This document shows positions 36,225-40,535 of a stretch of 64,000 nt of DNA, piece by piece (the stretch's first letter is position 1; each line of letters starts with the position of its first letter). The notes below the pieces were generated by a model, which was given only the letters and a program-made list of their open reading frames with translations, made no database searches and had not been told where the DNA came from. A program made the translations under genes and the position numbers. This stretch comes from Escherichia coli (lineage in GTDB: Bacteria; Pseudomonadota; Gammaproteobacteria; Enterobacterales; Enterobacteriaceae): assembly GCF_036507355.1 (NCBI RefSeq), contig NZ_AP027878.1; one strand, 5' to 3'.

Positions 36225-37417
36225 TAATCATCATCCCCGTACAGTTTGCGGGTAACTTCTTCGTCTTCCTCCTCGTCTTCGTCCAGATCCTGTTCAAGCC
36301 ATGCTTCGTTTGATATGCCTTCCGCATCGACATCACCATAACCACCTGTATCGACGATATCGGCAATTTCTTCTCTACGATGCTCAATCCACAATGCCGC
36401 ATCAGCGCGGCGGCTGGCGGCCCGTTCTCGCGCGATTTTATCCAGATCTTCAAGTGATGGAGCGCCAGATGCTGTTTGGTTTTCCTCATCATCGGTATTG
36501 GTCTTAGGAGCACGCAGATCGGCTTTGATTTGCTCCAGCATCAGGGGCGGCACTTTTCCTCCATGCGCCTCGATGAATTCAGCCGCTTCCAGCACTGACC
36601 AGTTATTTTCACGCTTTCGTTCGTATGCCAGCTTAACAATGCCAGCTTGCCCCATAGATAAAGCGTGCTTTTCCGCCTCCCGGCTTTCTTTTCGATAGTT
36701 ATTCCGGATGCTGTAAATGGTGTTGATCAGGCTGCTTATCTGCGCGGAACAGCTGTTTAGCATGCTCGCGATACGGTATTCAGGCGGAGTACCTTCATCA
36801 TCGTCTTTTTGCTGATCGCGCATTTCCTGCACTAGGCGAATACACGTATCCCTGGCGTTCTCCAGCATAAGGAGATGAGAAAGAGACTTTTCCAGAAGAG
36901 TGGTTTCCAGAACATCGGCCCCGGACCGACGCAACATAGCGCGCGCGGCCTTCCGCGCTTCAACGTTATCTATCAGGTAATCGCCAGCTTCGAATTCAAA
37001 GCGTTCACCATCATCATCCAGGGTGTCGCGTTCCAGGCGATCACGTAAGGTCCGGTGGGCGCGGGTGATCACGTCATGATCATCTGAACGATCATTTATG
37101 CGCTTATTTTGGCGCTTCGCATTCTCGACTGCGGCACTGACAACGGCATTAACTCTTTGTTTTTCCGCTATTTCAGCCGAAATGTGATCACCTGCATGTT
37201 GATCATTAGAGTGATCAATGATCATGCTTTTTAGTGGCTTCCTGACTGGCTTATTTGGCTTGCGGCTGTCCGTAGTCCTGGTGTCTTCTTTGAAGGCACG
37301 GAGATAACGACGTGCGGTATTAGGGTTAAGATTAAACTCGGCGGCATACTGTGCGATGGTGTAACCACCATCTCGCGCCAGGCGAGCAAAATTCTTCTTG
37401 TGATCGTCCCAGGTCAC
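36224..37417 (-). CDS. pacA: Terminase small subunit / pac-recognition protein
   Basis: 397 aa; N-terminal HTH; the pac hexamer clusters lie inside its 5' region. Confidence 0.8.
37037..37223. other. pac site (two clusters of TGATCA/CGATCA hexamers)
   Basis: Hexamers at 37037, 37065, 37076 and 37088, then 37184, 37199, 37211 and 37218, each containing a GATC Dam site. Confidence 0.8.
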
Positions 37418-37502
37418 TTATGCTTCCTTTCGTAAAAACTCTTTTTGACGCGAGGGTAACGAAAGTCACATGTCAAAAGGCCCGGAACGGGCAAGCAATC
37501 AA

Positions 37503-37925
37503 TCAGATACGTGCGGATGTGGCATTACCGTAATGACGGTGCTGACGGGCCACCTTATTGAAAAGTTGACGCGCCATTACCCAAGGCTGGTGCTCCCGGC
37601 GTTCCTTTTCGTCCTGCGTCATATAGAGTTCGTTCTGGAGTTTTTCATCAAACCGGCGCGGAGCGCGGCTACGGCGAAAGAATTCAGGATTCAGAGAGTG
37701 GATCTGAAATCTACGTGGGCGTGTACTGTCATCTATCAAAACAGACGAATACTTAGACACAGCGATAGCCTTTAAGCGCAGATAAACATCGCGCTTATCG
37801 ACATCCAGATGCGGGTATTCCTTTTCAAGAATTGCTGCGAGTTCTTTCGCTGATAGAAGAGATTTAGTGCGGATCATGTAATCCGCAATCTCGTACGATG
37901 TTATTCGTGAGTGATTTATTTCCAT
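37503..37925 (-). CDS. lpa: Late promoter activator-like protein
   Basis: About 140 aa; sits between pacA and the operator at 38026; symbol by position. Confidence 0.45.
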   Translation of the reverse strand: MEINHSRITSYEIADYMIRTKSLLSAKELAAILEKEYPHLDVDKRDVYLRLKAIAVSKYSSVLIDDSTRPRRFQIHSLNPEFFRRSRAPRRFDEKLQNELYMTQDEKERREHQPWVMARQLFNKVARQHRHYGNATSARI

Positions 37926-38025
37926 GAAGTGGCGTCCCTGCCAGTTAAGTAACATCCTGTCACCTACTGATTAGCCCATGTCAACTAATCAACGTGGAAT
38001 ATAATACCCTCGATTAAAGAAATGG

Positions 38026-38042
38026 CAATACATTAGAGCAAT
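38026..38042 (-). promoter_or_regulatory. C1-type operator-like site
   Basis: Reverse complement reads ATTGCTCTAATGTATTG. Confidence 0.5.
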
Positions 38043-38043
38043 T

Positions 38044-39087
38044 TTATCTAACACTCGACGAATGACTTGTGATAACGCCCACTCCAAGCGCGTAATCAAA
38101 GAACAATCGTTGATGCATCGCCAACCTACCGTGCGTCTTCTCCCAATTATCGCGGTCACGCTCAATATCACGCTGGCATGACTGGCACAGAGGAATTGCG
38201 TAAATGTCATGCGCGCATAATCGACTATGACGAACGATATAAGGCGTAATGTGAGCGCCAGCTCCCGCAGCTCCACACCCACAGCATGGACGGGAAGCAA
38301 CAAAGTCCATGTACTCAGGTAATTTTAGCGATTGCAGTTTTGGTATTTTGAAATGCGCCATGCCAGGGTCGGAGTCAACATCCACAGGGCATACTTTTGC
38401 ACGCATCGGCGCGGCGCGTTCTTCCATCATCTGAACATATGCTGTAGCGCGATCGTCATACGGGCGAATATCCGCCTCTTTCAGAGGTCCGCTATCCTGC
38501 GGAGTAGCCTTCATCTTATTTATTGATATGCGGCAGACTTCTTCCGGCATCAGGTGCATCATGTTGCGCATGAAAGCCCACCAGCACAGCTCCTGAATAC
38601 TTAAATCATGGCTATTTGAAAGGCCCATTTCCTGACGGGCGACATCCAGTATCCAGTTAACGCGATTATTGTGCAGCGTTTCTTTCAGCTCATTAAAACC
38701 ACGCATCCGGTAATGGTTATCGTGATGCCAGCACAACAACACCGCGCTATTGTCTCGTTCAGCGTGGACAATATGGTTGTCACACCAACTACGATCTGCG
38801 GCCTGGCATTGACCCTCTTTCCTACGCAACCACGCCACCAGCGCGTCAATTCCACCAATACGGCGAAACAGTTCATCGCTGTTAAAAAACGGCTGCAACG
38901 CCTCATTTGTTGCCATGGTTTGCTCGGTAACAACGAGGCCGTCTTCCATGTGCTCGATTAACTCACGCGGCACCGGCTCCATAATAAATTTACGGCCAGC
39001 CTCCACCAGCTTTCTGACCTCCTGATCCACTTTGAACGTGGCGAGGCCAAGCTCTTTCTGTACAAAGGGAGTAATTACGGCTTTCAC
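38044..39087 (-). CDS. Cys/His-rich hypothetical protein
   Basis: 347 aa; C-terminal CCGCG ... H ... CAHD ... CQSCQ cluster. Confidence 0.5.
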
Positions 39088-39114
39088 ATCACACCTTTAA
39101 TCACTGATTGGGCT

Positions 39115-39315
39115 TTATCTGCTGCCCGGCATTCTCTGTTTAAGCACAACCATTTCCTGACGGCATAACACAGCAATAGCGGTCCTGACTCCAATTTGCT
39201 TACCAACCAGGTATTGCTTTACCTTGCGGCGACTCACGCCATCAAGAAGCATCTTTAACGCTTCACGGGACAATTTGTTGTATTTGCGTGCCATTAATCT
39301 ACTCCGCAGAACCAT
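39115..39315 (-). CDS. Small basic protein
   Basis: 66-aa ORF overlapping the doc 3' end; coding status uncertain. Confidence 0.3.
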
Positions 39316-39679
39316 ACAATCTACGTAACGTGTCGGCGACAGAAGATACAGATATCTCGCCAGTCGCAGCGCCTACAGTAAGGTCTGCCAGTTCAGGTGA
39401 ATCAAATACCTGCACCCCGTTACGGCGTAGAAATAGCAGCGCACTGTTTAGCGCGGTACGCTTATTGGCATCATTGAATATATGCCCTCTCGCTGTAGCC
39501 ACCAGGTAGGTGGCGGAGACTTCGAAAAGGTCGGTGATCTCTTCGTAGGCAACTCTGGCCTGAACTCTCCCGATAATGGCCTCTGCCCTACCCGGATCAG
39601 ACATTCCCGGCAGGCCGCCGTAGCGGCTTATATTCGCATCATGAAGCGCAATAAGTTCTTCCGGTGATATATGCCTCAT
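39299..39679 (-). CDS. doc: Doc toxin (Fic-fold kinase)
   Basis: 126 aa, [25 protein letters not shown]; start overlaps the phd stop (ATGA). Confidence 0.95.
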
Positions 39680-39900
39680 TATCGGTTAACCAGTTCCTTG
39701 TTGGTGGAGTCCAGGGTGTCAAACAGGGATGCAAATTCAGCATCCAGCGCCGCTTTTTTGTAGGCTTCGAAAGTAGCCTTGCTGACAATTACTGCTGGCT
39801 CACGGCCTCTGCGGGTGATTTCAACCTCTTCCCCGGCTTCAACATTGTTGAGCACTTCAGAAAGGTTGCCACGCGCGGTACGGAAGTTAATGGATTGCAT
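39679..39900 (-). CDS. phd: Phd antitoxin
   Basis: 73 aa, [49 protein letters not shown]. Confidence 0.95.
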
Positions 39901-39972
39901 AAACACCTCGTGTACTCGTTATGTGTACACAATTATAAACTTCACAGGCATAAAGCACCAGCACTTTGCAGC

Positions 39973-40362
39973 TTAAATAACCGGACAATCATCAAATTCC
40001 CCACTTCGGGCATCATTGATGACATGAGTGATCACACCAAAAACAGCATTACTGCCCGTGTATCCATCGTCATCTACTGGTAACGCCTCTTTCTTCCCGG
40101 TGCTTAAATCCTCCAGGTGCTGGCGCGGATACTTCCTGTATCTCTTTATGCGATATTCACCCTCCATAGCGCACACAAGCAGAGAACCATCAACCGGAGT
40201 AAGCGAGGAATCAACCACCAGCAAAGCACCCTGCAATATTCCCTCACGGTGATGGCTATCAGCTGCCCGCATGAAGTAGGTTGCTGATGGATGCCTGATT
40301 AGTTGCTGATCAAGAGAAATTCGGCTTTCAACATAATCCGCCGCAGGAGAAGGGAAGCCCAT
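39973..40362 (-). CDS. humD: UmuD' homologue
   Basis: 129 aa; S24 peptidase-like fold (LexA/UmuD C-terminal domain type); LexA box 20 bp upstream. Confidence 0.85.
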   Translation of the reverse strand: MGFPSPAADYVESRISLDQQLIRHPSATYFMRAADSHHREGILQGALLVVDSSLTPVDGSLLVCAMEGEYRIKRYRKYPRQHLEDLSTGKKEALPVDDDGYTGSNAVFGVITHVINDARSGEFDDCPVI

Positions 40363-40381
40363 AGCGTTTTCACCTCAATAA

Positions 40382-40401
40382 TACTGTTCATTTATACAGT
40401 A
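40382..40401. promoter_or_regulatory. LexA box (TACTGTTCATTTATACAGTA)
   Basis: Perfect CTGT-N8-ACAG core between the divergent humD and 40536 ORF. Confidence 0.7.
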
Positions 40402-40535
40402 TACATTAAAGAGACACCTTTGGTGCAAACGCGTTATGGAGCTTAACCCCTCTGATGACTTTGTGCGCTTTGCTACTATTCATCACCGCTGGATCAGCGT
40501 AACCTCGTAACTAATCAATTAATAAGGAATTAGCC

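Follow-up and report, generated by a model that had tools for sequence, protein, structure and literature searches.

Genes pdcA and pdcB of bacteriophage P1: a probable third cistron of the phd-doc cassette and a DUF968-family His-Me finger protein unlikely to be a conventional HNH nuclease

Introduction

Jablonska et al. (2017; PMC5714182), in their classification of the His-Me finger superfamily, unite the families DUF968 and DUF1364 (YbcO, PDB 3g27) as group 7 and treat NinG as a His-Me finger family as well. A zinc-finger HNH motif was described in DUF968 proteins by Curtis et al. (PMC4118853). The fold interpretation of the family to which PdcB of bacteriophage P1 belongs is already published, and our literature search found no published assay of any DUF968 protein. 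A literature search on the neighbouring gene pdcA returned unrelated papers only.

The P1 toxin-antitoxin module phd-doc lies next to these two genes. Lehnherr et al. (1993) reportedly showed that phd and doc by themselves are enough to give addiction.

Genetic data on the two genes come from studies of P1. Knock-down of pdcB by CRISPRi gave an efficiency of plating of about 0.7 and no lytic defect (PMC10695390), and the same paper, citing Gonzales et al. (2022) for a survey of deletions, counts pdcA and pdcB among the non-essential genes. A pdcB::kan mutant was readily made and recovered (PMC10067587), and P1 carrying pdcB::kan forms stable lysogens (PMC10999674). Here we analysed a copy of the locus in Escherichia coli by computation, starting from an earlier note, made from the sequence alone, which had described a Cys/His-rich protein and a small basic ORF beside phd-doc and had proposed that a nuclease-like gene in one operon with phd-doc may belong to its stabilisation or exclusion function.

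Results

The locus is catalogued P1 DNA downstream of doc

The window is a 64,000-nt stretch of contig NZ_AP027878.1 (assembly GCF_036507355.1). Its positions 38044-39315 were found to be bacteriophage P1 DNA, with 98.9-99.3% nucleotide identity to P1 records; a megablast search with 37400-40500 gave 99.3% identity to MH422554 and 98.9% to the reference records AF234172 and NC_005856. The list of open reading frames contains both ORFs, on the minus strand, at 38044-39087 and 39115-39315 (Table 1). The 347-aa ORF is annotated in the P1 reference as pdcB and the small one as pdcA, both marked 'unknown protein function', and the products encoded in the window differ from the reference proteins by three amino acids (PdcB, AAQ14077) and one amino acid (PdcA, AAQ14076). 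These annotations date from 1993/2004, and an 'orf' spanning most of pdcB was already annotated in M95666, the GenBank entry of 1993 for phd-doc. That both ORFs are real and not chance ones was confirmed by the match of PdcB to DUF968, by the matches of both proteins to PHROG families and by the annotation of both in P1. The genes pdcA and pdcB are long-known, non-essential P1 genes, and the locus is an ordinary, catalogued one.

Both genes sit between doc and lpa, the same place as in the P1 reference, whose annotation gives the minus-strand order humD, Pphd, phd, doc, pdcA, pdcB, Olpa/Plpa, lpa, pacA, pacB. The description of the two ORFs as lying directly upstream of phd-doc is true in plus-strand coordinates only; all of these genes are on the minus strand, and the ORFs are 3' of doc, that is, downstream of it, which is why they were named pdc, for 'post-doc'. 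The operator Olpa starts 2 nt past the pdcB stop codon, and the transcription start of Plpa was mapped in M95666.

Table 1. Positions of pdcA, pdcB, their parts and their neighbours in the window
Feature	Position	Strand	Details and basis
pdcB	38044..39087	-	YdfU/DUF968-family protein of 347 aa; GTG start with AAGG before it; ORF list
PdcB C-terminal beta-beta-alpha (His-Me finger) module, predicted, residues 262-320	38128..38304	-	
PdcB N-terminal beta-beta-alpha zinc module, predicted, residues 94-130	38698..38808	-	
pdcA, most likely form, 59 aa (MARKYNKL...)	39115..39294	-	
pdcA, annotated 66-aa form, ATG start	39115..39315	-	
GGAG Shine-Dalgarno of pdcA, within last codons of doc	39302..39305	-	Sequence reading
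doc (toxin), upstream neighbour, same orientation	39299..39679	-	Pfam Fic/DOC; P1 annotation
phd (antitoxin)	39679..39900	-	Pfam PhdYeFM; P1 annotation, 222 nt
C1 operator Olpa	38026-38042	-	P1 annotation transferred by offset
Promoter Plpa	38001-38028	-	P1 annotation; promoter scan TTGCCA-16-TATTAT at 38028..38001
lpa (late promoter activator)	37503..37955	-	Pfam BPP1_LPA, E 3e-57

PdcB is predicted to contain two zinc modules

PdcB matched Pfam DUF968 (PF06147) over residues 161-337 and HMM positions 1-171 (E 4.6e-50), with a score of 170.4 bits against a Pfam gathering cut-off of 27.8, and it matched phrog_96 over its full length (E 1e-128); the NCBIfam search gave noise only. When 1.84 billion representative proteins were searched exhaustively with HMMER, 136 relatives of PdcB were recovered, a large share of which spanned the whole protein with 22-39% identity, and YdfU of the E. 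coli Qin prophage could be aligned with PdcB from end to end (26% identity, E 2e-44). Apparent fusions of the N-terminus of YdfU to tail-fibre or J-protein domains were also seen; they are most likely prophage-deletion chimeras and say nothing about function. The pN/pS ratio of pdcB against P1-like plasmids was about 0.1-0.2, indicating purifying selection.

PdcB contains 12 Cys and 16 His residues. The C-terminal cluster comprises C268-C269-G-C271-G, H279, H287, C291-A-H293-D294 and C301-Q-S-C304, and a second cluster, which the first reading of the sequence had missed, comprises C94, C102, H105, H108 and C119-W-H121-H122-D-N-H125. Since PdcB and a 40-member family profile found nothing among PDB sequences, the fold was tested by structure prediction. 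The AF2 model, based on a 96-sequence alignment, reached a pLDDT of 88.8 and revealed two beta-beta-alpha units, a C-terminal one with strands 280-284 and 297-301 and helix 302-310, and an N-terminal one with strands 106-111 and 114-119 and helix 120-129. Alignment of the family profile with YbcO using hhalign gave a probability of 81% over PdcB 263-310. Foldseek matches of the model to the PDB were weak (best E 0.65), and the top ones were mostly HNH proteins. The C-terminal unit of the model thus has the beta-hairpin followed by an alpha-helix, structurally similar to solved members, that marks the superfamily of His-Me fingers. Candidate zinc ligands flank the C-terminal hairpin, with C268, C271 and C301 invariant and C304 nearly so (C or H in relatives).

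Taken together, the DUF968 match, the published classification, the AF2 unit and the hhalign match to YbcO indicated that the C-terminal Cys/His cluster is, as modelled, a zinc-stabilised His-Me (HNH) finger fold. This agrees with the resemblance to an HNH or zinc-ribbon fold that had been noticed from the letters, and the predicted unit at 280-310 lies in the region, residues 280-347, for which fold prediction had been proposed as a check.

For the N-terminal unit, C94, C102, C119 and H122 are the candidate ligands, and the family motif is L-C-W-H-[HC]-D-N. D123 was invariant among the relatives, and C94, C119, W120, H121 and N124 were nearly so. In addition, relatives have either C or H at column 102 and either H or C at column 122, as zinc ligands would be expected to vary, suggesting that the N-terminal unit is a second zinc module. 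It was also compared with the C-terminal finger as a possible duplicate; the Cys of the second strand and the helix were in register, the hhalign probability was a non-significant 0.6%, and homology between the two is not claimed.

P1-type PdcB proteins keep the zinc scaffold and have replaced the catalytic histidines

The consensus of the C-terminal module in the family is QPCxxCG-x4-DPHH-IGHGxGGMGxKAHD-x4-PLCRx[C/H]H-x-ELH. We found that the column aligned to PdcB I284 was His in 36 of the 40 full-length relatives, and that the four exceptions were P1 PdcB and its three nearest cluster representatives, with TPYI, SPYL, YAYQ and HPFM. The same four have a Gly-rich loop shorter by about 5 residues and CQSCQRDIE where the others have CRxxHxELH. 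In P1 PdcB the catalytic 'PHH' is thus P282-Y283-I284, the helix 'H..H' is Q305/E309, and the metal-ligand motif of the helix, H-x-E-L-H, reads Q305-R-D-I-E309. The loss extends to all 15 P1-type sequences compared (65-98% identity), which have [S/T]-P-[Y/F]-[I/L/M] at this site; C268, C271, H293, D294, C301 and C304 are constant across them, and D294 and P299 are invariant across the whole family. Furthermore, Pfam HNHc_6 was matched by 23 of the 40 relatives (best E 1.3e-7), whereas P1 PdcB had no match to Pfam HNH, HNH_5 or HNHc_6 at E up to 0.1.

The P1-type clade, as far as the alignments tell, keeps the zinc scaffold and not the canonical set of general base and metal ligands, and with the catalytic His replaced across the clade a conventional HNH nuclease activity appears unlikely. 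The word nuclease in the earlier note is doubtful for PdcB on the same ground, and since no member of the P1-type clade has the catalytic histidines, the widespread label 'HNH endonuclease' probably over-annotates P1 PdcB.

Other residues might stand in for them. An alternative HMMER alignment puts H279 on the catalytic His column with a 1-residue gap and canonical spacing to D294; among the 15 P1-type homologues this position, which falls in a variable insertion, is H, R, N, Q or deleted. The counterpart of E309 in YbcO is an Asp, and relatives at 65-81% identity have A, V, S or R there. Against the reading of a lost motif stand the perhaps usable H279 of P1 itself, the conservation of H293 and D294, and E309 as a possible metal ligand. 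The main caveat to regarding PdcB as a dead nuclease is that its N-terminal module could host a non-canonical active site.

pdcB is found beside late-gene activators, with or without phd-doc

To see which genes accompany pdcB, we compared gene orders around its relatives. A P1-like element with a PdcB of 69% identity (Lpa 74%) has the order pdcB, lpa, pacA, pacB, c1, and no phd, doc or pdcA was found within 4 kb upstream. Elsewhere a PdcB homologue of about 36-37% identity is followed by an Lpa homologue (54% identity), with phd, doc and pdcA absent there, and a homologue of 38% identity lies among accessory genes in a locus where no phd, doc or pdcA was detected. One lambdoid prophage has the order hok, small ORF, DUF968, RusA, Q and another the order MT-A70 methylase, DUF968, Q; the order in Qin is relB, relE, hokD, rem, ydfU, ydfT (Q). 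The constant neighbour of the pdcB family is therefore a late-gene activator, which is lpa in P1-like elements; in lambdoid prophages, where the family stands at the end of the nin region, it is Q. Rem, the product of the small ORF before ydfU in Qin, was considered as a relative of PdcA, and sequence comparison revealed no relation.

The gap between doc and pdcA is 4 nt and that between pdcA and pdcB 27 nt, all on one strand, and a scan from doc to the end of pdcB found no terminator-like or promoter-like site. From this layout, co-transcription of pdcA and pdcB with phd-doc is plausible, with Pphd, and perhaps also the promoter of humD under LexA control, as the source of read-through. The '-22 box' of P1 late promoters was matched upstream of pdcA and pdcB with 2 mismatches only, and a late promoter is not claimed. 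The interval between pdcB and lpa showed no terminator or stable RNA structure (z -0.23). That there is no recognisable terminator before lpa would be awkward for constitutive read-through in lysogens.

A search of plasmids returned 1245 records carrying this phd-doc lineage, only 655 of which have most of the four-gene block. Among the matches listed, a run of plasmid records covers only query positions 1-1094 or 1-1097, ending inside pdcB. In the IncF plasmid pIP1206, phd-doc-pdcA is followed by no more of pdcB than its 5' end (blastn and tblastn put it at about 280-340 nt), phage D6 has phd-doc-pdcA and no pdcB, and some more divergent cassettes end inside doc or inside pdcA. A whole pdcA or a remnant of it stood beside this doc lineage in every locus examined, D6, IncF plasmids and an IncY plasmid among them, so that in these loci co-occurrence with phd-doc was found for pdcA only and not for pdcB. 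PdcA and PdcB matched no toxin, antitoxin or defence family, and PADLOC defence models gave no match to either at E up to 1.

pdcA most likely starts after doc and encodes 59 residues

The 66-aa form of pdcA begins at ATG 39315, which has no Shine-Dalgarno sequence and gives a 17-nt overlap with doc. There is another ATG in the same frame at 39294; between it and the doc stop codon (TAG, 39301-39299) are 4 nt, and the GGAG precedes it by 7 nt. PHROG 3345 (59 positions) matched residues 8-66 only of the 66-aa form, and PGAP and most gene callers give pdcA 59 aa. In view of the missing Shine-Dalgarno sequence, the PHROG coverage and the PGAP calls, the likely product is therefore of 59 aa and does not overlap doc, and ATG 39294 is the most likely start. 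The 98 database homologues of PdcA were mostly 59 aa long and all at least 70% identical to the query, and those having a source name were called PdcA. The earlier note had described a 66-aa basic ORF overlapping the 3' end of doc; the basic character stood, with 17 K+R against 3 D+E in the 66-aa form and 15 K+R against 3 D+E in the 59-aa form, and the likely 59-aa product lacks the overlap.

PdcA had no match in Pfam, NCBIfam or PDB sequences. Its AF2 model (pLDDT 74.6) consists of helices 2-17, 22-31 and 36-54, and this three-helix arrangement matched thousands of unrelated structures. L13, L16, L17, D18, G19 and V20 were invariant, and the pattern of the hydrophobic core was conserved. We then compared pN/pS among nine related loci, seven of which carry a full-length pdcA ORF. 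The ORF was intact in 7 of 7 full-length loci and pN was below pS in every comparison; the ratio, computed from small substitution counts, was 0.1-0.8 for pdcA compared to about 0-0.15 for phd and doc. Frameshifted or truncated variants were common among the database homologues. These data suggested that pdcA is probably a genuine gene under weak constraint, with its signals for translation placed within the end of doc. A role in nucleic-acid binding is possible.

Discussion

We propose, with a probability of roughly 0.55, that PdcB is a non-essential accessory DNA-binding protein of P1 with little or no canonical HNH nuclease activity, and that it is not a working part of phd-doc. The protein, as modelled, comprises two beta-beta-alpha modules stabilised by zinc, with a helical region between them, and its C-terminal module is a His-Me (HNH) finger. 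In lambdoid prophages and P1-like elements, members of the YdfU/DUF968 family occupy the last place of the early region, directly before Q or Lpa, and most of them, carrying the full signature CxxC...PHH...CxxH-x3-H, are presumed from their context to cut or process DNA in phage recombination or replication. The P1-type clade has retained the four zinc cysteines under purifying selection, its general-base and helix histidines having been replaced, and we infer both the loss of nuclease activity and the binding of DNA as an accessory protein. The gene pdcB would stand outside the addiction module, simply downstream of the phd-doc(-pdcA) cassette and probably read through from it. Since the end of doc contains the ribosome-binding site of pdcA, the phd-doc transcript probably has pdcA as its third cistron, and pdcA travels with the cassette.

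How far PdcB has moved from catalysis may be judged differently. It could be an active HNH-type endonuclease that uses non-canonical residues (H279 or H287, H293, D294 and E309, or H121/H122/D123/N124 of the N-terminal module) and acts on P1 or host DNA in recombination, replication or SOS repair. A fold of the His-Me finger type and DUF968 membership fit such an enzyme, as do the placing of H279 by HMMER at the canonical distance from D294, the invariance of D294 and P299, and the proximity of pdcB to the DNA-metabolism genes humD and hot; the RefSeq name and phrog_96 even call it an 'HNH endonuclease', but these names are transferred labels, not experiments. We regard this as unlikely, since the general-base column is Y/F-I/L/M in every P1-type homologue, relatives at 65-81% identity have R, N or Q instead of the substitute H279 or lack the residue, the helix histidines have become Q and E, and the HNHc_6 match seen in 23 of 40 relatives is missing in P1 PdcB. 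A bolder version of the loss can also be formulated, in which the P1-type protein is an ancient 'pseudo-nuclease' re-purposed as a zinc-dependent DNA-binding factor of the early-to-late switch (for example, insulating or timing lpa with respect to read-through from humD/phd-doc), or else works through an unrecognised N-terminal C-W-H-H-D-N active site; this we consider rather improbable.

The relation to phd-doc admits two further readings. One, built on the earlier note's view, makes PdcA and/or PdcB working parts of phd-doc stabilisation or exclusion, for instance PdcA as a third-component regulator and PdcB as a nuclease effector. It draws on the common strand, the short distances between the genes, doc even containing the ribosome-binding site of pdcA, the lack of a terminator-like site between doc, pdcA and pdcB, the presence of pdcA or its remnant with this doc lineage in D6, IncF plasmids and an IncY plasmid, and the similar order of toxin-antitoxin module, small ORF, DUF968 gene and late activator in Qin. 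However, the small ORF of Qin encodes Rem, which is unrelated to PdcA; PdcB homologues and pdcB-lpa pairs are known from places that lack phd, doc and pdcA; in many plasmids the pdcB that follows phd-doc-pdcA is truncated; pdcB::kan lysogens of P1 are stable; neither protein has a PADLOC match; and pdcA is less constrained than phd or doc, with frameshifted or truncated variants common. The sufficiency of phd and doc for addiction, as it is reported, points the same way. Hence the claim finds no support for PdcB, and as a whole it is very unlikely; for pdcA a role in stabilisation or exclusion is still a weak possibility because this gene co-travels with phd-doc. Conversely, pdcA might not be a functional gene at all but a short ORF kept by hitch-hiking on a young, highly similar phd-doc cassette. 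The restriction of the family to P1-type cassettes at 70% identity or above, pN/pS values of up to 0.6-0.8 in some comparisons, the many truncated or frameshifted variants, and a protein with no Pfam, NCBIfam or PDB match whose model resembles thousands of unrelated structures could all be explained in this way. The intact ORF in 7 of 7 full-length loci with pN below pS throughout, the well-placed GGAG, the conserved hydrophobic core pattern and a moderately confident AF2 model argue against it, and we hold it to be quite unlikely. The reading of PdcB as an accessory DNA-binding protein beside a cassette with which pdcA travels is the one we prefer.

As a discovery the locus has little value, the P1 genes being catalogued and the fold assignment of the family published. 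The useful new points are the over-annotation of PdcB, the conserved position upstream of the late activator and the correction of the pdcA start to ATG 39294. By position, pdcB belongs with lpa, as its relatives belong with Q, which matters for the use of pdcB as a neutral insertion site or PCR marker of P1-like phage-plasmids. For pdcA the better description is that of a third cistron, encoding 59 aa, in a mobile phd-doc cassette that has spread to IncF plasmids. Should the DUF968 family be assayed, the P1 clade offers a natural comparison for loss of the catalytic site.

Comparison with known systems

The closest described relative is YdfU of Qin (PF06147), which like PdcB is collinear over its full length, has two Cys/His modules and stands directly before a late-gene activator. 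YdfU and most relatives have DPHH...CRxxHxELH, whereas the P1 PdcB clade has TPYI...CQSCQRDIE and a loop about 5 residues shorter. YbcO of DLP12 (DUF1364, PDB 3g27, 'putative nuclease YbcO') is a single domain of 96 aa, and PdcB has about 260 extra N-terminal residues; in YbcO the general-base column is His and the helix carries an H...D pair, where PdcB has Y/I and Q/E.

P1 itself encodes Ref, a RecA-dependent HNH nuclease (PDB 3plw, Pfam RecA_dep_nuc) that is experimentally active and has an intact HNH motif, and the identity between Ref and PdcB is only 9%. Lambda Rap/NinG and RusA, like the PdcB family, are encoded where the early region ends, ahead of Q, and cleavage of branched DNA has been demonstrated for Rap and RusA. 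With PdcB they share this genomic niche, and NinG also the His-Me finger classification. Finally, the type II toxin-antitoxin module phd-doc adjoins pdcA and pdcB on the same strand, probably in the same transcript, and pdcA travels with it. For its part, pdcB is dispensable for stable lysogeny and is found without the module.

Presence and extent of pdcB

The positions of the features and loci considered here are listed below.

Coordinates of features in the window and of the comparison loci
Feature	Sequence	Position	Remark
phd mechanical ORF	window	39679-39906	GTG start, 75 aa
pdcB stop codon, Olpa and Plpa	window	38001-38044	
Phage D6 locus (L009)	MF356679.1	86507-87310	
pIP1206 locus (L013)	NC_010558.1	146333-152429	IncF conjugative plasmid
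E. coli K-12 Qin prophage locus (L012)	NC_000913.3	1643255-1645872	compared with window 38044-39900

Phd, as annotated and as known experimentally, is a 73 aa protein starting at the ATG at 39900, two residues shorter than the mechanical ORF. A difference in annotation was also found for pdcB, which is not annotated in the P1 record MH422554.1. The ORF is intact there and 99.9% identical to that of the window, so loss of the gene was rejected in favour of an annotation gap.

The phd-doc-pdcA cassette was also found without an intact pdcB. In phage D6, phd-doc-pdcA is retained with protein identities of 95-100%, pdcB is absent, and a convergent isaA-like gene borders the end of the block. The P1-derived piece of pIP1206 comprises phd-doc-pdcA and only the 5′ end of pdcB, and is adjoined by the divergent type I restriction-modification genes hsdM and hsdS. 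The same extent (query positions 1-1094/1097) was seen in 15 of the 45 rows of the sampled plasmid table, and hsdM replaces humD upstream of phd in several P1-like plasmids.

PdcB of pCE1537-E carries an in-frame deletion of four codons (residues 240-243, DPGMA to E) that maps to the low-confidence linker preceding the C-terminal module, consistent with this linker serving as a spacer that tolerates change. In the proteins P0147, P0176, P0178 and P0230, a YdfU-like N-terminal region of 160-220 residues continues into a domain of the tail-tip J, collar or tail-fibre type. Such fusions are most likely chimeric ORFs produced by internal deletions in decaying prophages.

The pdcB-lpa junction

The C1 operator of lpa begins 2 nt downstream of the stop codon of pdcB, and neither a terminator nor a stable RNA structure was found between the two genes. 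If phd-doc-pdcAB is a single constitutive transcript in the lysogen, the late-activator gene would have to be shielded from it, for which a roadblock formed by C1, the action of Rho or a low level of expression would be candidates.

Comparison with lambdoid prophages

Lambdoid prophages other than Qin (L003 and L005) carry, in this order, hok, a small ORF, a DUF968 gene, RusA and Q. The Qin order, relB-relE-hokD-rem-ydfU-ydfT (Q), parallels phd-doc-pdcA-pdcB-lpa of P1, with a toxin-antitoxin module followed by a small ORF, a DUF968 gene and a late activator. Qin Rem and P1 PdcA show no relationship, and the parallel may therefore merely mirror the insertion of toxin-antitoxin modules as extra genes in nin-like regions.
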